Virus record (IMG/VR): IMGVR_UViG_3300025671_000087
Span: 1 to 53,840 of that record
Source: a virus
Lineage: Duplodnaviria > Caudoviricetes
Strand: one strand, 5' to 3'
Length of the DNA stretch: 53,840 bases
Positions 1,969 to 50,625 of this stretch are shown piece after piece. Within the stretch, counting starts at the first letter, position 1. The number at the start of each line of letters is the position of its first letter. The notes under the pieces were generated by a model that ran no database searches, was not told the DNA's origin, and saw only the letters and a list, made by a program, of their open reading frames with translations. The translations under genes were made by a program, and so were the position numbers.

Positions 1969-1997
1969 TTGACTTTACCCCTCCCCCAAGGTATAAC
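1969..1997 (+). promoter_or_regulatory. sigma70-type promoter for the lysis/late arm
   Basis: TTGACT-N17-TATAAC(T). Confidence 0.65.
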
Positions 1998-2000
1998 TAT

Positions 2001-4179: not shown

Positions 4180-4422
4180 ATGAGAAATTACAAAAAAGAA
4201 TACGGTAATTACCAAGGCACTGCCCAGCAGAAGAAGAATCGTGCTTCTAGGAATGCTGCACGTAATGCTCTTAAAAAGGTTGGAGTGGTTAAGAAGGGTG
4301 ACGGTAAGGATGTAAATCACCGTAACGGTAACCCCAGGGATAACTCACCTAAGAACCTATCTGTAACAACTAAACGTGCAAACAGATCTTTTCCTAGAAA
4401 TAGTAAAGCAGGTAAAAAATAA
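4180..4422 (+). CDS. small basic HNH-like protein
   Basis: GDGKDVNH-x-NGNP-x2-N-x3-NL-x7-NRS beta-beta-alpha-Me pattern. Confidence 0.75.
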   Translation: MRNYKKEYGNYQGTAQQKKNRASRNAARNALKKVGVVKKGDGKDVNHRNGNPRDNSPKNLSVTTKRANRSFPRNSKAGKK

Positions 4423-4718
4423 TGGCTATCCCTGAAAGAGTTAAAACTAAGATGAAGGACGCAGGACTTAAAGGCGTCAACAAACCACAACGTCTTAATG
4501 ACGACAGTGGTAAGTCTCATCATGTTATGGCTTCTGAGGGTGGTAAGTACAAGTATATCAAGTTTGGTGAAAAAGGTGCATCAACTGCAGGTAAACCTAA
4601 AGCTGGTGAATCTGACAAGATGAAAAAGAAACGTGCAAGTTTCAAGGCTAGACACGGTAAGAATATTAAAAAGGGTAAAATGTCTGCTGCTTATTGGGCA
4701 GACAAGGTAAAGTGGTGA
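4422..4718 (+). CDS. small basic conserved phage protein
   Basis: KRASFKARH...SAAYWADKVKW pattern; Lys-rich. Confidence 0.8.
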   Translation: MAIPERVKTKMKDAGLKGVNKPQRLNDDSGKSHHVMASEGGKYKYIKFGEKGASTAGKPKAGESDKMKKKRASFKARHGKNIKKGKMSAAYWADKVKW

Positions 4719-4906
4719 TGTGGATAGCTGTCGTCTTAGCTTGCAGCACTCAGATGGCCACATCTTGTCAGGTATTTGCCAATACAAAAGAGATGTTTTA
4801 TGAACAATTTGCCTGTAACGATGACGCAACTAAGATGGCTGAGTACTTAGTAGCTCAGGGTGTAGTTGCAGTGCCTCTTTGCTTTGAAGTGGGAAAATCA
4901 ACATAA
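4718..4906 (+). CDS. small Cys-containing, signal-peptide-like protein
   Basis: TGATG coupling; MWIAVVLAC N-terminus; four Cys. Confidence 0.65.
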   Translation: MWIAVVLACSTQMATSCQVFANTKEMFYEQFACNDDATKMAEYLVAQGVVAVPLCFEVGKST

Positions 4907-5082
4907 TGAAAAAGAAGTCTACAGTAAATGCAGCTGGTAACTATACCAAACCAACTATGCGTAAGAACCTTGTCGCCAAAGTTAAGGCGGGTGGAAAAGG
5001 TGGCAAACCTGGACAATGGTCTGCGAGAAAAGCCCAAATGGTTGCAAAGCAATACAAAGCAAAAGGCGGTGGATATAAGTAA
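4906..5082 (+). CDS. small basic protein, DUF5872-like N-terminal half (58 aa, not in ORF track)
   Basis: MKKKSTVNAAGNYTKPTMRKNLVAKVKAGGKGGKPGQWSARKAQMVAKQYKAKGGGYK; TAATG coupling at both ends. Confidence 0.8.
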   Translation: MKKKSTVNAAGNYTKPTMRKNLVAKVKAGGKGGKPGQWSARKAQMVAKQYKAKGGGYK

Positions 5083-5213
5083 TGGCAAAAGCTAAGAAAC
5101 TTACAGTAGCTGAAAAGTACCGTCAATTAAAAGCCCAAACTGAATCAGCCGGTATGAAGGTAGAGGAAGTTGACGGTAAAATTGTAGTAAGACGTAAGGC
5201 TAAGAAAAAATGA
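5082..5213 (+). CDS. small basic protein (43 aa, not in ORF track)
   Basis: MAKAKKLTVAEKYRQLKAQTESAGMKVEEVDGKIVVRRKAKKK; coupled to both neighbours. Confidence 0.7.
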   Translation: MAKAKKLTVAEKYRQLKAQTESAGMKVEEVDGKIVVRRKAKKK

Positions 5214-5440
5214 AGAAACCACAGAAGTCTCTAAAAGACTGGGGCAAACAAAAGTGGAGAACTTCAGACGGATCTCCCTCAAAGGGTAAAAAAAGATACC
5301 TGCCAGACTCGGCATGGAAATCTTTGTCGCCTGGAGAAAAGGCAGCTACCAACAAAGCTAAGGCAACAGGTAATGCTAAAGGTAAACAATTTGTAAAACA
5401 GCCCAAGAAGATTGCAGCTAAAACCAGGAAGTTTAGATGA
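5210..5440 (+). CDS. small basic protein, DUF5872-like C-terminal half
   Basis: QKSLKDWGKQKWRT...RYLPDSAWKSLS...GKQFVKQP. Confidence 0.8.
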   Translation: MKKPQKSLKDWGKQKWRTSDGSPSKGKKRYLPDSAWKSLSPGEKAATNKAKATGNAKGKQFVKQPKKIAAKTRKFR

Positions 5441-5727
5441 TGAAAAAGACTCAATGTCCAAAGTGTAAAGGTAAAGGATGCTCCCATTGTGGTGGCAAAG
5501 GTTATCATACTGGTATGAACAAAGGTGGTGTTATGAATGAAGGTATGAAGGCTCTAAAGAAAAAAGCCCCAGCAGTAGCTAAGAAGATGGGCTACAAACA
5601 CGGTGGTACAACTGCTAAAAAAGGTATGTCTTACGGAGGTATGGCTAAAAAGAAAATTGGCATGAAAGATGGTGGTATGGCTAACTGTGGTGCTTCCATG
5701 AAACCTAATAGGATGTCCAGGTCATGA
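5437..5727 (+). CDS. small basic protein with CxxCxGxG zinc-finger repeats and four xxxGG motifs
   Basis: CPKCKGKG-CSHCGGKG; MNKGG, YKHGG, MSYGG, MKDGG. Confidence 0.75.
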   Translation: MMKKTQCPKCKGKGCSHCGGKGYHTGMNKGGVMNEGMKALKKKAPAVAKKMGYKHGGTTAKKGMSYGGMAKKKIGMKDGGMANCGASMKPNRMSRS

Positions 5728-5990
5728 GACTGGAGAACGATAAAGTAGTAGATCATATTGGTACTGTCCTTGCCGAAAAAATACGGGGTGAGTGGCACAC
5801 TAAAGATGATGCAGTCATGCAGTTTATTTTAACTTTGGAAGGCGGTGATCCTATTCTAGAGGAAGAGGACGAACTGGAGATGGTTCGTGCTCGTAACGAT
5901 AAAGGTCATTACATTGCGGATGATCCTGACACGGAAGTAAACGAAGCTTGGATAGTAAAAACAGTAAAGAAGGCTGCTAAAAAGAAATGA
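5724..5990 (+). CDS. hypothetical protein
   Basis: Coupled ORF with a RARNDKGHYIADDPDTEVNEAW segment. Confidence 0.75.
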   Translation: MRLENDKVVDHIGTVLAEKIRGEWHTKDDAVMQFILTLEGGDPILEEEDELEMVRARNDKGHYIADDPDTEVNEAWIVKTVKKAAKKK

Positions 5991-6346
5991 GTGTACTCAA
6001 TCAGGGCAAACCAGCACGTATGCGTTCTGTGTATGGTCACAACAGTGGCACTGCTACAGAGGTTGTATATACATGTCCTGCTAACTGTGTAGCTGAGGTT
6101 ACGTTTATCCATGTAGTCAACGGTGGTGGAAGTACAAACTCTGTAGATGTAGAGTGGTATGTAGCAGCTGATAACTACACGTCTCACTTTCTTTCAGGTA
6201 AGAGTTTAAATGCAGGTGATTACGTTACCTTTTCCGACATCGACCTAGTACTGCAGCCGGGTGACAAGATACAAAACGTACCTACTTCTGCTGGTCATAT
6301 TGACACTATCCTTACTGTAACAGAGACCTTTGTTCCAGTAGGGTAA
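5987..6346 (+). CDS. hypothetical beta-rich, possibly virion protein
   Basis: Coupled ORF; Thr/Val-rich beta-strand pattern. Confidence 0.75.
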   Translation: MSVLNQGKPARMRSVYGHNSGTATEVVYTCPANCVAEVTFIHVVNGGGSTNSVDVEWYVAADNYTSHFLSGKSLNAGDYVTFSDIDLVLQPGDKIQNVPTSAGHIDTILTVTETFVPVG

Positions 6347-6351
6347 CGGGG

Positions 6352-6380
6352 TTGCACTATTGTCAATAGTGTGGTATAAC
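6352..6380 (+). promoter_or_regulatory. promoter with a palindromic operator in its spacer
   Basis: TTGCAC-N17-TATAAC(T); CACTATTG-T-CAATAGTG inverted repeat at 6355-6371. Confidence 0.65.
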
Positions 6381-6389
6381 TAAGTATGG

Positions 6390-6445
6390 TATAACTCCTG
6401 TGTATACAAACGTGTATACATGATGTTCATGAAACAGGAGTTATA
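6390..6445 (+). promoter_or_regulatory. structured 5' UTR sequestering the Shine-Dalgarno sequence
   Basis: TATAACTCCTGT (6390-6401) is the exact reverse complement of ACAGGAGTTATA (6434-6445). Confidence 0.7.
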
Positions 6446-6448
6446 AAC

Positions 6449-6598
6449 ATGAAATGGTTAATCAATTGGTTTGAAGCAGTAGCTGTAGCACAACAACGCC
6501 GTGCAGACTATTGGCTTTTAAAGAATATGTCCGATAAAGAATTGAAGGACATTGGAATATCCCGTGGAGAGATTGCTCAAAAAGTCTTTTTAGGTTAA
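6449..6598 (+). CDS. DUF1127 (YjiS-like) small protein (49 aa, not in ORF track)
   Basis: MKWLINWFEAVAVAQQRRADYWLLKNMSDKELKDIGISRGEIAQKVFLG carries the L-x2-(M/L)SD-x2-LKDIG(I/L)-x-R-x-(D/E)I hallmark; strong AGGAG SD. Confidence 0.85.
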   Translation: MKWLINWFEAVAVAQQRRADYWLLKNMSDKELKDIGISRGEIAQKVFLG

Positions 6599-6642
6599 AA
6601 TCTATATTATAAATAGGTAGATGAGACTTTGGGAGGAGGCTC

Positions 6643-7116
6643 GTGGATCCAATTACCATAATGGCTGGAGCATCAGCTGCGTTTAATGCCATAAAAAAGG
6701 GTATTGAGGTAGGCAGAGGCTTGCAAGATATGTCTGGCCAATTGTCTCAGTGGGCAGGAGCCATGTCTGACTTAGGTCGGGCAGAAACAAAAGCTAAAAA
6801 CCCCCCTTGGTGGAAATCACTAAGTGGGGGTGTAGAACAAGAAGCTATGCAAATTTTTGCTGCTAAGAAAAAAGCAGAAGAAATGCGTAAGGAGCTTAAG
6901 CAATACATATCATTTAGTATGGGTCCATCAGCTTGGGAAGAACTTCTCCGAATTGAATCCCAGGTACGTAAGAGAAAACAAGAGCAGGAGTACCGCAAAG
7001 AAGAAATAAAAGAAGCTATTATTAACTGGTCTGTTGGCATATTAGCTGCCCTTGTAGGATTAGTTATATTAACTGTAGGTTTTTATTTTCTCGGTACACA
7101 ACAAGGAAAGTGGTGA
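6643..7116 (+). CDS. conserved phage protein with coiled coil and C-terminal TM segment
   Basis: GGAGG SD, GTG start, hydrophobic C-terminus. Confidence 0.8.
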   Translation: MDPITIMAGASAAFNAIKKGIEVGRGLQDMSGQLSQWAGAMSDLGRAETKAKNPPWWKSLSGGVEQEAMQIFAAKKKAEEMRKELKQYISFSMGPSAWEELLRIESQVRKRKQEQEYRKEEIKEAIINWSVGILAALVGLVILTVGFYFLGTQQGKW

Positions 7117-7120
7117 CACT

Positions 7121-7489
7121 ATGGCTAGAAATCTAACGGAGAAGCAGCAAAAATTTCTCGACGTATTGTTTGAGGAAGCTGGCGGAAATCTAGTTAAAGC
7201 TAAAAAGCTTGCTGGGTACGCAGATGCTGTAACTTCTCGTCAAGTAGCAGAGCCACTGGCAGATGAGATTGCGGATCTGACCAAGAAGTTTATTGCCTCT
7301 TCTTCAACCAAAGCTGCATACTCAATGTTTGAAATTATGAACAACCCGACAGATCTGGGAAATAAAGAAAAGATGGCAGCTGCAAAAGATGTCCTAGATC
7401 GTAGTGGTTTTGTGAAGACAGAGAAGGTAGAAGTCTCTGCAGCAAGCCCACTATTTATCCTGCCTCAAAAAGATAATGAAGATAACTAA
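7121..7489 (+). CDS. putative terminase small subunit (N-terminal HTH)
   Basis: LTEKQQKFL...AKKLAGY HTH-like start; AAKDVLDRSG; upstream of terL. Confidence 0.6.
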   Translation: MARNLTEKQQKFLDVLFEEAGGNLVKAKKLAGYADAVTSRQVAEPLADEIADLTKKFIASSSTKAAYSMFEIMNNPTDLGNKEKMAAAKDVLDRSGFVKTEKVEVSAASPLFILPQKDNEDN

Positions 7490-7895: not shown

Positions 7896-9318
7896 AGAAA
7901 TAGATTTTGAACAAGCTGCGCAAGAAGTTATCTTTGAGCCAAACCCTGGACCACAAACATCTTTCCTGGCAGCTACGGAGCAGGAAGTACTTTACGGAGG
8001 AGCAGCAGGTGGCGGTAAGTCGTATGCAATGGTTGCAGACCCAGTTAGGTACTTGGGTAACCCTAATGCACGAATGCTACTTGTTCGTCGTAGTACAGAA
8101 GAGCTTAGAGAACTTATATCGGTAAGTAAACAACTCTATCCAAAAGCTATCCCTGGGATCAAGTTTATGGAAAGAGATAAGACTTGGGTAGCTCCATCAG
8201 GTGCTACATTGTGGATGTCATATCTTGATAGAGATGATGACGTTATGCGATACCAAGGTCAAGCTTTTAACTGGATTGGCTTTGACGAACTTACACAATG
8301 GCCTAGCCCTTATGCATGGAACTACATGAGATCCCGTCTCCGTAGCACTAGGGCATCTGGATTGCCACTGTATATGAGAGCAACAAGCAACCCAGGTGGC
8401 CCTGGGCATCAGTGGGTAAAAAGAACGTTTATCGACCCTCAAACTCCGAATAAAGCGTTCCCTGCCACTGACGAAAACGGAAACGTGGTTACGTGGCCAA
8501 AAGGTCATAGTCGGGAGGGTGAGTCTCTATTCAAAAGAAAATTTATACCGGCCACCCTCTTCGACAACCCTTATCTTTCAGACGATGGTCTTTACGAAGC
8601 TAATCTTTTATCTCTGCCTGAACATCAAAGAAGACAACTTCTTGAAGGTGACTGGGACATAAATGAAGGTGCAGCTTTTCCAGAGTTTAACAGACGGGAC
8701 CACGTTATTGACCCGTATGACATACCAGGTAACTGGACACGGTTTAGAGCTTGTGACTATGGCTACGGGTCTCACACAGGAGTTCTTTGGTTCACGGTAG
8801 TTCCTGGATCAGAGCAACTGGTAGTCTACAGGGAGCTTTACGTATCTAAGGTCACAGCTACAGACTTAGCAGATATGATCTTGGATATCGAGAACGAGTC
8901 TAACGAGAAAATACGGTATGGAGTTCTTGACTCCTCTCTCTGGCATAATCGTGGTGATACTGGCCCCAGCCTAGCCGAGCAGATGATTATGAAGGGTTGT
9001 CGGTGGAGACCTTCAGATAGATCTAAAGGTTCTCGTGTAGCAGGTAAGAACGAATTACACAGACGTCTGCAGATAGATGAATTTACAGAAGAGCCTAGGT
9101 TAGTGTTCTTCAATACTTGTACAGACACAATCTCACAAATACCCAGTCTACCTTTGGATAAAAATAATCCTGAAGATGTAGACACACATGCAGAAGACCA
9201 CTTGTATGATGCTCTTAGATATGGTGTAATGACAAGGCCAAGAAGTAATATATTTGACTTTGATCCTGCATCGCAACGAACAGGCTTTCAAGCATCAGAT
9301 CCAACTTTCGGATATTAA
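7753..9318 (+). CDS. terL: terminase large subunit
   Basis: Walker A YGGAAGGGKS, Walker B IGFDELT, ATSNPGG, nuclease CDYG and DHLYDALRY; start codon uncertain. Confidence 0.95.
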   Translation: MSKNVRQKLQLNVTSPKGTKKPLKKPRGLKVDSSVKKTTSIPAQPKPEEIDFEQAAQEVIFEPNPGPQTSFLAATEQEVLYGGAAGGGKSYAMVADPVRYLGNPNARMLLVRRSTEELRELISVSKQLYPKAIPGIKFMERDKTWVAPSGATLWMSYLDRDDDVMRYQGQAFNWIGFDELTQWPSPYAWNYMRSRLRSTRASGLPLYMRATSNPGGPGHQWVKRTFIDPQTPNKAFPATDENGNVVTWPKGHSREGESLFKRKFIPATLFDNPYLSDDGLYEANLLSLPEHQRRQLLEGDWDINEGAAFPEFNRRDHVIDPYDIPGNWTRFRACDYGYGSHTGVLWFTVVPGSEQLVVYRELYVSKVTATDLADMILDIENESNEKIRYGVLDSSLWHNRGDTGPSLAEQMIMKGCRWRPSDRSKGSRVAGKNELHRRLQIDEFTEEPRLVFFNTCTDTISQIPSLPLDKNNPEDVDTHAEDHLYDALRYGVMTRPRSNIFDFDPASQRTGFQASDPTFGY

Positions 9319-16378: not shown

Positions 16379-16382
16379 GCTG

Positions 16383-16410
16383 TTGACAAATACTAATTCA
16401 ACAGTATAAC
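16383..16410 (+). promoter_or_regulatory. promoter for the major capsid gene
   Basis: TTGACA-N16-TATAAC(T). Confidence 0.7.
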
Positions 16411-16414
16411 TATA

Positions 16415-16625
16415 GGCACAGAGACAAAAGCCTCATTTGACTACCTTTTGTCTCGGCCAAATTCCACAAAAGTCTAAACTAAAAAGAACTACCTGTTTAA
16501 GTATAGGCCCACTTACTCTAGACCGTATAATTGATCATTATACTCTAGACCGTAAGTGCACCCTAGAAAAATAACAGCCTCTTTAAGGTGTTTAGCTTCG
16601 TTTATAAGCCAAATATCATGGAGGA
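16415..16625 (+). ncRNA. structured cis-regulatory leader of the capsid mRNA
   Basis: Stems 16421-16430/16445-16454 and 16510-16558; outer CTAAAC/GTTTAG pairing. Confidence 0.55.
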
Positions 16626-49603: not shown

Positions 49604-50488
49604 TCATACTCTTTGTCTCCTATCTAATGCAGACTTTGCGGTTTTTAAACTAAACTTGTTGTACGGATTTAAACTTTGTACATGCTTATGACCTGATACA
49701 GATTGAATTGCAAGATGGTCTACACCACTCTCGATCATCTGCACAATGGCGGTCTTTCTTAAGTCACCCACTCGGAGGTCATCAGGAAGCCCTGCAGCAG
49801 CCTTAACGTCTGTAAGCAGTGTTGTCATCTGAACAATCGTTAGAGGCCTGTAGGCACTGTCCTGTGGCCTGTGGTGAGGTACTACGTAGGGCTGGAAGTC
49901 CCAGTCCTCTTTCTGCTGTTTGAGCATCGTGAGTAAGTTGTCTGGAATAGGTAGCTCAACAGTTGCACCTCGTTTGCTTTGAGTGATTGTCACTACCTCA
50001 TTCTCAAGGTCAACTTGATCCCATTGCAAGTTGCGTATGTCTATGGGTCTCTGCCCCCATTCATAACACATCAAGATAATCAGCCCAAGGTTTCTCCAGT
50101 CGAAGTTTTGGAATGCTGCGTCGAGGCATGATAGTACTTGGTCGTGCGTCCAGATAACTGAACGTGGCTCACTTGTACGTTTCCGTACTCGTGACATAGG
50201 ATTGGTAGGCATCTTCTCCATCGTGATCAGATAGTTCATCAGGACGGAGAATATACGTGCCTTGTGGTTTGCATTGGATGTAGATGTCTCCATCTCCCAC
50301 GTATCGTATATCTCCGTGCAAAGTGGGACGTTAAGATTCTTGATGGAGATATTACCCAGAGTCCTACCACCTACGGACATACGACAGAAAGAATGTAGTG
50401 CCGACTCGTAACCTTTTTGAGAGGATGCTGCCAGTGATGCAAACTGCCGTGTGTGTAGGTATTCATCTACTGCTGTTCTAAATCTCAT
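49604..50488 (-). CDS. int: tyrosine recombinase/integrase
   Basis: WGQRPIDI (R), QSKRG (K), GDLRKT (R), SGH (H), LNPY (Y); ATG at 50488 after AGGAAAG. Confidence 0.85.
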   Translation of the reverse strand: MRFRTAVDEYLHTRQFASLAASSQKGYESALHSFCRMSVGGRTLGNISIKNLNVPLCTEIYDTWEMETSTSNANHKARIFSVLMNYLITMEKMPTNPMSRVRKRTSEPRSVIWTHDQVLSCLDAAFQNFDWRNLGLIILMCYEWGQRPIDIRNLQWDQVDLENEVVTITQSKRGATVELPIPDNLLTMLKQQKEDWDFQPYVVPHHRPQDSAYRPLTIVQMTTLLTDVKAAAGLPDDLRVGDLRKTAIVQMIESGVDHLAIQSVSGHKHVQSLNPYNKFSLKTAKSALDRRQRV

Positions 50489-50532
50489 ATCTTTCCTAAC
50501 CAGTGTGTACAATCGTCATGTGGATCGTCCAT
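50485..50532 (-). CDS. 15-aa peptide coupled to int (not in ORF track)
   Basis: GGAGG SD; MDDPHDDCTHWLGKI; stop overlaps the int start (ATGA). Confidence 0.5.
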   Translation of the reverse strand: MDDPHDDCTHWLGKI

Positions 50533-50548: not shown

Positions 50549-50625
50549 TGGCCCACCCTGCAGGACTCGAACCTGCAACCTACTGCTTAGAAGGCAGTTG
50601 CTCTATCCAGTTGAGCTAAGGGTGG
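50549..50625 (-). tRNA. tRNA-Arg(UCU)
   Basis: Cloverleaf: CCACCCT/AGGGTGG acceptor, GCTC/GAGC D stem, ACTGC-CT-TCT-AA-GCAGT, GCAGG-TTCGAGT-CCTGC, encoded CCA. Confidence 0.97.

Follow-up and report, generated by a model that had tools for sequence, protein, structure and literature searches.

A leader helix over the ribosome binding site of a conserved DUF1127 gene at the head of the late genes of a marine roseophage

The DNA analysed here (the window) is the whole of virus record IMGVR_UViG_3300025671_000087, which is 53,840 nt long and complete or near-complete, with an estimated completeness of 97%. The element under study is the 5' leader of a small gene on the + strand that encodes a 49-aa protein of the DUF1127 family (PF06568; 6449-6598, counted from the ATG to the end of the stop codon). 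The region is interpreted as the translation-control leader of a conserved phage DUF1127 gene, which would be the first gene of the packaging and structural unit. The 5' end of the predicted leader RNA is complementary to the ribosome binding site of the gene, and the predicted closing helix of 12 bp is maintained by compensatory change among related phages. It is regarded as highly probable that this helix is a selected RNA structure limiting translation. With respect to how the helix is relieved, control by the origin of the transcript, a design of the type of gene e in phage T4, is the favoured reading and is put at slightly under an even chance.

To place the leader in its lineage, relatives were collected with the conserved 119-aa gene directly upstream as the anchor (5987-6346, + strand, from the ORF (open reading frame) list; function unassigned). 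The best 80 of the 364 IMG/VR relatives were used, so the sample is tilted towards close kin of the 119-aa gene. Together with seven isolates and the window these gave 88 loci, which yielded 46 distinct leaders of 39-65 nt.

Results and Discussion

The closing helix of the leader

In the window, the 5' arm of the closing helix (the anti-Shine-Dalgarno arm), TATAACTCCTGT, is located at 6390-6401 on the + strand and is perfectly complementary over 12 bp to the 3' arm, ACAGGAGTTATA, at 6434-6445 (+), which was found by folding and repeat search and contains AGGAG at 6436-6440, 8 nt before the ATG. The RNA of 6386-6460 folded at -22.9 kcal/mol with a z score of -3.44, and 0/200 dinucleotide shuffles folded as well. 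In this fold the Shine-Dalgarno site had a pairing probability of 1.0 and an unpaired probability of 0.00. An earlier note on this DNA, made from its letters alone, had described a 12-bp pairing over AGGAG, and the pairing was recovered exactly where the note had put it.

Structure was likewise found in the relatives. All 46 distinct leaders had z scores below -2 (median -4.36, against mononucleotide shuffles), and in every one of them a stretch at the 5' end pairs at or beside the ribosome site. The pairing probability of the Shine-Dalgarno site was above 0.8 in 23 of the 46 leaders, between 0.5 and 0.8 in 12, and 0.5 or less in 11.

Covariation of the leader in related phages had been proposed in the earlier note as a check on the pairing, and the arms do co-vary. 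Their sequences differ between groups and are complementary all the same, as in the pairs TAGTCTCCG/CGGAGACTA, ACTATCTCC/GGAGATAGT, GCTCCAGTT/AACTGGAGC and TGTCCATG/CATGGACA. The mean duplex energy was -13.4 kcal/mol for a leader's own arms vs -7.9 kcal/mol for arms taken from different sequence groups, and when the arms were swapped among one representative of each of 12 groups, 0/20000 re-pairings reached the observed energy sum. In the 31 leaders with at least three of the four GGAG bases paired to the 5' end, the five following positions vary among A-U, U-A, G-C and C-G; at position +5 after GGAG, the pair is U-A in 3, G-C in 11 and A-U in 16 of these leaders. The pairs in this table were read off the fold predicted for each leader, so that the proper control is the permutation test. 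An alignment of 32 of the 46 distinct leaders with MAFFT, followed by RNAalifold, gave no consensus structure, because the register of the helix shifts between groups.

The same data bear on the level at which the complementarity acts. That it acts in DNA and not in RNA, as a protein-binding inverted repeat, a cruciform or a recombination junction, is considered highly improbable. This explanation draws some support from the left boundary of an exchanged block (described below), which lies at the TATAACT motif opening the 5' arm. Protein-binding sites, however, conserve sequence, whereas here the sequence changes and the complementarity is kept, and the helices contain G-U pairs, which work only in RNA.

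For comparison, 70-nt leaders from 13 bacterial DUF1127 loci, a small sample with uncertain start codons, gave z scores from -2.8 to +1.3, with 2/13 below -2. As the bacterial loci are without a comparable leader, the helix seems to be tied to the phage lineage and not to the DUF1127 family.

The leader interior and control in trans

The minimum-energy structure of 6386-6460 is a three-way junction in which the closing helix encloses two inner hairpins (6401-6431, + strand), one formed by 6401-6408 and 6413-6420 and the other by CATGA (6419-6423) and TCATG (6427-6431). The earlier note had described this junction, and in the fold of the window it is present with both hairpins; as a functional unit it did not stand, only the closing helix being shared among the leaders. 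Two inner hairpins occur only in the group closest to the window; a single hairpin is usual in the other groups, and in one of these the loop is C/A-rich and unstructured. Over all leaders, the interior holds 0 to 2 hairpins, varies about four-fold in length and is variable in sequence.

An RNA thermometer, a riboswitch or autogenous control had been suggested for this leader. An Rfam scan of 6000-7000 at E values up to 10 returned only three chance-level matches, and the interior has no conserved core, being variable in sequence, length and hairpin number; both results argue against a riboswitch. When the leader of the window was modelled at different temperatures, its Shine-Dalgarno site was unpaired with a probability of 0.00 at 5 to 55 C and 0.01 at 65 C, and for 30 occluded leaders modelled from 5 to 65 C the median was 0.045 or less. 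A thermometer for a marine host is argued against by these in silico results, since the modelled site stays paired from 5 to 65 C.

A more general possibility, judged unlikely, is that the helix is a switch operated in trans, whether by the protein encoded downstream (autogenous control), a host or phage small RNA, an RNase, a metabolite or temperature. Such a switch would suit a helix that is too stable in the folding model to open unaided, and the leader and the ORF are inherited as one block, as expected of a mutually recognising pair; RNA binding has also been reported for CcaF1, a DUF1127 protein (PMC8034643). In its riboswitch form, the switch is opposed by the Rfam result and by the unconserved interior with its unstructured loop in one group, and in its thermometer form by the modelled pairing of the site; for the autogenous form, the co-inheritance could be simple linkage.

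An extended version, held to be quite unlikely, makes the leader and the protein a co-evolving pair of self-recognising partners. By binding its own leader the protein would set its level, and by binding RNAs of the host or the phage it would redirect RNase E-dependent processing in late infection; phages would trade different alleles of the pair as one unit, in step with host differences. If this were true, the leader would provide the first defined RNA target motif for the DUF1127 family and give the family a role in a marine phage group that ranks among the most abundant.

Promoter P1 and the repeat in its spacer

The predicted promoter P1 (6352-6381, + strand) consists of TTGCAC at 6352-6357, a 17-nt spacer and TATAACT at 6375-6381, with TG at -15/-14, and its start site is predicted at about 6386-6388. 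The promoter of the earlier note (TTGCAC, 17-nt spacer, TATAAC at 6375-6380) was confirmed at these positions, and its layout recurs in the form TTGAC(A/T)-N17-TATAACT at three other intergenic sites, near 1969-1998 (+), 16382-16411 (+) and 42178-42149 (-). The sole exact match to TTGCAC-N17-TATAAC in the window is P1 itself, and a loose version of the pattern with up to two mismatches is not enriched (22 matches vs 22.8 expected). The -10 heptamer GTATAACT is enriched, with 9 occurrences in the window vs 2.56 expected and 0/100 shuffles reaching 9. The hexamer TATAAC also fits the -10 consensus GCtANAWC reported for RpoD, the main sigma factor of Caulobacter (PMC8144410). Because the heptamer is enriched, the layout recurs and TATAAC fits the Caulobacter consensus, P1 is a credible host-type promoter of the sigma70 type.

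The pattern TTGCAN-N17-TATAAC was found in 44/88 loci, in 18 distinct versions, among which the spacer sequence is well conserved; this conservation could reflect recent common descent or a binding site. A search of four isolate genomes for TTGAC-N18-TATAACT gave exact matches only in CRP-207 and CRP-13, one in each, which are too few to define promoter classes. Readings as a sigma54 or T7-like promoter were dropped by eye, as no conserved upstream block is present beyond TTG and the -10. No RNA polymerase match was found among the 34 ORFs of the window covered by the PHROGs scan (cut-off E 1e-5), though five large ORFs matched nothing.

A perfect 8-bp inverted repeat was found by repeat search in the spacer of P1 (6355-6371, no strand assigned), with the arms CACTATTG at 6355-6362 and CAATAGTG at 6364-6371, and the earlier note had taken it for an operator. 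The repeat is present, but its occurrence is within chance, since 7 such 8-bp repeats were counted in the window vs 4.4 +/- 2.4 in shuffles. It is also absent from the other 17 distinct versions of P1, whose spacer-repeat arms are 0-5 bp, so that the 8-bp arm is unique to the window genome. The repeat is probably not functional as a repeat, and the operator was abandoned.

A separate observation concerns the sequence between the 119-aa gene and the heptamer. Every layout keeps the block TA(A/G)CGGG(G)T(A)T(G/T)C(A/C)A right behind the 119-aa stop codon, even in loci where the block lies 32-33 nt from the only heptamer, which is too far for it to serve as a -35.

A second -10 element and gating by transcript origin

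The -10 region is duplicated in tandem at a spacing of 15 nt (AGTGTGGTATAACT at 6368-6381 and AGTATGGTATAACT at 6383-6396), a feature absent from the earlier note. As a consequence of this duplication, the 5' arm of the closing helix opens with a second TATAACT (6390-6396, + strand), a direct repeat preceded by TGG that forms the first 7 nt of the arm and is at the same time a candidate inner promoter, P2. A start at about 6400-6403 is predicted for P2, and its activity as a promoter is itself putative.

In the favoured reading, RNAs that begin at P1 (about 6387) or read through from upstream would carry 6390-6401, which would pair with 6434-6445 and bury the Shine-Dalgarno site. The DUF1127 ORF would be poorly translated from these arm-bearing RNAs, while the downstream genes, which have their own ribosome sites, would be unaffected. 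The 5' arm coincides with the second -10-type TATAACT and the stretch to its expected start, and an RNA begun at the inner promoter would be translated, having no arm to bury the site. The two start sites, an active inner promoter and lowered translation are all predictions made from the DNA sequence. Read-through RNAs are plausible, since no terminator lies between the upstream genes and the leader.

The position of the heptamer relative to the helix is consistent with this reading. TA(T/A)AACT lies directly 5' of the arm or within it in 46/46 leaders, with the arm starting 1-9 nt from the start of the heptamer. A full P1 stands 14-15 nt upstream of the arm-side heptamer in 44/88 loci, and the other half have a single heptamer with no recognisable -35; among the isolates, CRP-13, CRP-9 and CRP-1 have two heptamers, and CRP-207 and CRP-2 have one. 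In 36/46 leaders the heptamer is outside the helix and yet invariant, and its sole variable base corresponds to the N of the reported alphaproteobacterial -10 consensus (PMC8144410). In models of RNAs that begin 7 nt after the heptamer, the probability of an unpaired Shine-Dalgarno site rose from 0.00 to 0.91 in the window, and the median over the 46 leaders rose from about 0.2 to 0.59. Values above 0.5 were obtained for 32/46 truncated RNAs vs 6/46 read-through RNAs. The RNA of 6402-6480, from which the arm is removed, had a z score of -0.01.

A comparable arrangement has been reported for the T4 genes e (lysozyme), soc, 49 and I-TevI, in which the ribosome site is hidden on RNAs with an upstream start and RNAs from an inner promoter escape (PMC3014915). 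In both systems, RNAs starting upstream form a helix that covers the Shine-Dalgarno site and/or the AUG, the promoter (here a candidate) lies in the DNA encoding the 5' strand and gives RNAs without the inhibitory arm, and the structure is conserved among related phages. The T4 genes use a gp55-type late promoter, whereas the present element is a host-type sigma70 -10 (TATAACT) with predicted starts. Further differences are that half of the present phages add a second full promoter 15 nt upstream and that the gene controlled here encodes a DUF1127 protein.

Several observations weigh against gating by transcript origin. The inner -10 element is without a -35, and the strong P1 that it overlaps could prevent its use; the extended -10 TG is present in the group of the window and a few others, not in every group. 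In the 11 leaders with a pairing probability of 0.5 or less, the helix abuts the site on one side or the other, or takes in the start codon instead. With the arm gone, part of the gain in accessibility in the truncated RNAs follows trivially, and in 14/46 leaders the truncated RNA keeps the site half paired or more. The start codons of the relatives were picked by a Shine-Dalgarno heuristic. The distinction between early and late RNAs known from T4 is not evident here, since the upstream genes, including the endolysin gene, and the downstream genes both look late. Finally, metatranscriptome contigs from 4 runs (88% likeness) cover parts of 5900-6514 and bridge the upstream gene into related leaders, but they cannot show 5' ends and may be DNA, for which reason no conclusion on expression was drawn; among 24 metatranscriptome runs, none contained half of the words sampled from the window.

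The association of P1 with the helix could also be explained with P1 as the single promoter, an alternative that is possible but doubtful. The helix, 2-4 nt from the 5' end, would then be a fixed throttle that permanently lowers translation of the first ORF and, in addition, a 5' cap protecting a long late mRNA from decay that depends on the 5' end, and the second TATAACT would merely be transcribed. With a start near 6387 the helix is essentially 5'-terminal, P1 resembles the three other promoters of the genome and is conserved in 44/88 loci, and the similar promoter at 16382-16411 is also closely trailed by an 11-bp hairpin unrelated to a ribosome site. This alternative leaves unexplained why the 44/88 loci without P1 keep TATAACT immediately 5' of the arm and why the heptamer is invariant in the 36/46 leaders where it is outside the helix, and a pure stabiliser needs no pairing with the Shine-Dalgarno site.

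The tandem -10 copy has a further possible explanation in transcript elongation. The sigma70-dependent promoter-proximal pause site at the lambda PR' promoter serves as its model: the second TATAACT, at +3 to +9 of P1, would be a pause of this kind at which a late-gene antiterminator is loaded. This is judged very unlikely, and it could coexist with the other readings. A pause would suit a copy placed 15 nt beyond the true -10, a P1 spacer strongly conserved over the 18 versions and a position at the head of the late genes. Half of the loci, however, have a single heptamer, no Q-like gene was found in the PHROGs scan of 34 ORFs and no downstream terminator on the + strand between 4000 and 10000, and the covarying helix is not accounted for. 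Gating by transcript origin was retained as the favoured reading at the strength given above.

The DUF1127 protein

The 49-aa protein matched positions 3-36 of the 37 in the PF06568 profile with E 4e-8, its score of 33.3 bits exceeding the cut-off of 23.3, and in a whole-genome Pfam scan DUF1127 scored 32.3 bits. The domain covers residues 9-42, so the small protein is almost wholly domain. PF06568 was also matched by all 16 representative orthologues, in which the residues L32, D34, G36, R39 and I42 are invariant. The assignment of the ORF to DUF1127 in the earlier note, for which a PF06568 search had been suggested, was thus upheld.

A structure model gave three helices (residues 2-25, 29-35 and 39-48) with a mean pLDDT of 84. 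A Foldseek search of the PDB with this model found nothing at E 0.001 or better, all matches having E above 3, and PHROGs had no family for the protein at E 1e-5. The best profile match among PDB sequences was the SAM domain of BICC1, a weak match (E 0.041) to be taken as a hint only. It agrees with the likeness to the Smaug SAM domain reported for DUF1127 (PMC8034643) and does not establish that likeness.

DUF1127 proteins are numerous and few have been studied, and the studied ones differ: CcaF1 of Rhodobacter sphaeroides is reported to bind RNA and to affect RNA stability (PMC8034643), and the Salmonella homologue YjiS is reported to have shown no RNA association (PMC11707872). In view of YjiS, function cannot safely be transferred across the family. 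As CcaF1 and YjiS differ, an RNA-directed role of the phage protein, in which it would bind RNA and alter RNA processing or stability in the infected cell, is given perhaps an even chance.

The phage gene and the ccaF1-ccsR locus of R. sphaeroides are alike in Pfam family, small size and Rhodobacterales setting (PMC8034643). The gene described here differs in being phage-encoded and in being controlled, as proposed, through a 5' leader helix. Small RNAs of the CcsR/cuckoo type were not found after the phage gene: the Rfam scan of 6000-7000 (E up to 10) matched none, and the next gene follows after only 44 nt.

A fixed site, an operon and an exchanged block

A DUF1127-type ORF was found directly after the 119-aa gene and ahead of the packaging genes in 88/88 loci, 67 by a strict peptide motif and 21 by inspection. 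By tblastn, the protein was also detected in four more isolates (CRP-3, CRP-212, CRP-235 and CRP-738), and gp69 of CRP-603 already carries a DUF1127 annotation. Because the site is occupied in every locus, the gene does not behave as a moron; across the loci compared it is a fixed feature of the phage lineage and not an occasional insertion, and the moron-like insertion proposed in the earlier note was accordingly dropped.

In CRP-13 (MW514247.1; locus L004, 1549-1713), a DUF1127 ORF with its leader is present, unannotated in GenBank, and overlaps the start of terS.

No terminator-like site was found on the + strand between 4000 and 10000. Between the DUF1127 stop codon and the next gene there are 44 nt (the gene begins 45 nt on, at 6643), and in several relatives the DUF1127 ORF overlaps or abuts terS. 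Since no terminator follows it and it overlaps terS in relatives, the gene is the first of an operon and not a closed unit, and as predicted from the gene order it heads the packaging and structural transcription unit. The location at the head of the packaging and structural arm, claimed in the earlier note, agreed with the PHROGs map; the description of the module as self-contained did not survive.

The leader and the ORF show a different history from the upstream flank. The identity of the 119-aa protein to that of the window was 81-99% in the IMG/VR loci and had a median of 87% when all loci were counted, and the median identities of the DUF1127 protein and TerS were 58% and 57.5%. In two relatives (L079 and L080), identity to the window was 70-98% on both sides and fell to 40-70% exactly over 6387-6626 (+ strand), a block that comprises the leader, the ORF and a short tail. 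Another relative (L008) was 95-100% identical to the window up to the stop codon of the 119-aa gene and divergent from the leader on. As identity drops exactly over the leader and the ORF, the two move together and the promoter region is the left junction. Of the cassette described in the earlier note, the exchange of leader and ORF as one block between conserved flanks therefore stood, and its self-containment did not.

In loci L008-L013, a sharp mosaic junction was observed at 6346/6387, the identities being 98-99% for the 119-aa gene, only 59-61% for DUF1127 and 57% for terS. By such comparisons, the lysis/small-protein block and the packaging block meet at a recombination boundary in the intergenic promoter region.

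The PeSL cassettes (promoter-early stem-loop) described in T4-type phages are similar in that related phages exchange small genes at a boundary marked by a conserved sigma70-like promoter and a stem-loop (PMC2839356). They differ in that their stem-loops are reported as terminators between early genes, with many per genome (PMC2839356), whereas here a single site lies at the head of the late genes, without a U-tract, and the stem-loop hides a ribosome site. A mobile cassette of the PeSL type was rejected, as the + strand between 4000 and 10000 has no terminator-like site and the helix occurs at one site.

Significance of the arrangement

Control by hiding the ribosome site is a textbook principle. 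The present case adds an example to it and not a concept, both components being of known kinds. What is new is the combination of a DUF1127 gene with a sequestering leader as a fixed, exchangeable unit heading the late genes of abundant marine phages. In a full-text literature search, judged mostly by titles and the openings of abstracts, no paper on a phage DUF1127 gene was found, and the main text of the HMO-2011 paper PMC9038755 holds neither the word 'DUF1127' nor the word 'promoter'. A DUF1127 gene at a fixed, always-occupied site, together with a selected leader fold, offers a compact and testable system for the role of the protein and for the way in which the phage meters it.

Genome context and further sites

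The nearest named relatives of the window are the Roseobacter phages CRP-9, CRP-13, CRP-1, CRP-2, CRP-603, CRP-207 and CRP-345, with 68-74% DNA identity over the region. These CRP phages have been placed in the HMO-2011-type group, and HMO-2011-type roseophages are reported to be dominant in the ocean (PMC9038755). By this likeness, the window is the genome of an HMO-2011-type marine roseophage, and with these relatives, phage genes matched in PHROGs and the completeness of the record, the phage origin assumed in the earlier note was substantiated.

According to the PHROGs matches and the ORF list, the + strand carries in order the endolysin gene (2853), several genes for small basic proteins, the 119-aa gene, the DUF1127 ORF and the gene for a 157-aa membrane-type protein, followed by terS (7121), terL, portal (9328), major head protein (16632) and tail genes. 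The 119-aa protein had no Pfam match and no PHROG family at E 1e-5. The 157-aa gene (6643-7116, + strand) has its own GGGAGGAGG ribosome site, and its product has a C-terminal hydrophobic segment. It is followed by terS (7121-7489, +), after which comes terL (+), ending at 9318. Genes for ribonucleotide reductase, DNA polymerase, primase/helicase, thymidylate synthase and integrase were matched by PHROGs on the - strand.

At 4422-5727, five small lysine-rich proteins (98, 58, 43, 76 and 96 aa) are encoded in a row, three with matches to PHROG families of unknown function. In CRP-1 and CRP-345, the DUF1127 gene is followed by a copy of the 58-aa type from this run.

Some features were also noted at the other sites with promoters or heptamers like those of P1. 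The major head gene begins about 220 nt downstream of the promoter TTGACA-N17-TATAACT at 16382-16411, and the 11-bp hairpin after this promoter is formed by GAGACAAAAGG at about 16421 and CCTTTTGTCTC ending at about 16455. Two copies of the direct repeat ACTCTAGACCGTA, about 27 nt apart, are found near 16515-16555, and the region 16382-16560 could be a structured leader or a small RNA.

On the - strand at 42178-42130, TTGACA-N17-TATAACT is immediately followed by AGGAG, with an ATG 8 nt later, which places the ribosome site between the -10 and the expected start. At this site, the origin of the transcript would decide whether the short ORF has a Shine-Dalgarno site.

A tRNA-Arg(tct) gene at 50549-50625 (-) adjoins the integrase gene (49604-50512). 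About 10 nt upstream of this tRNA gene, TATAACT occurs at 50641-50635 with no clear -35, which would represent use of the heptamer without a -35.

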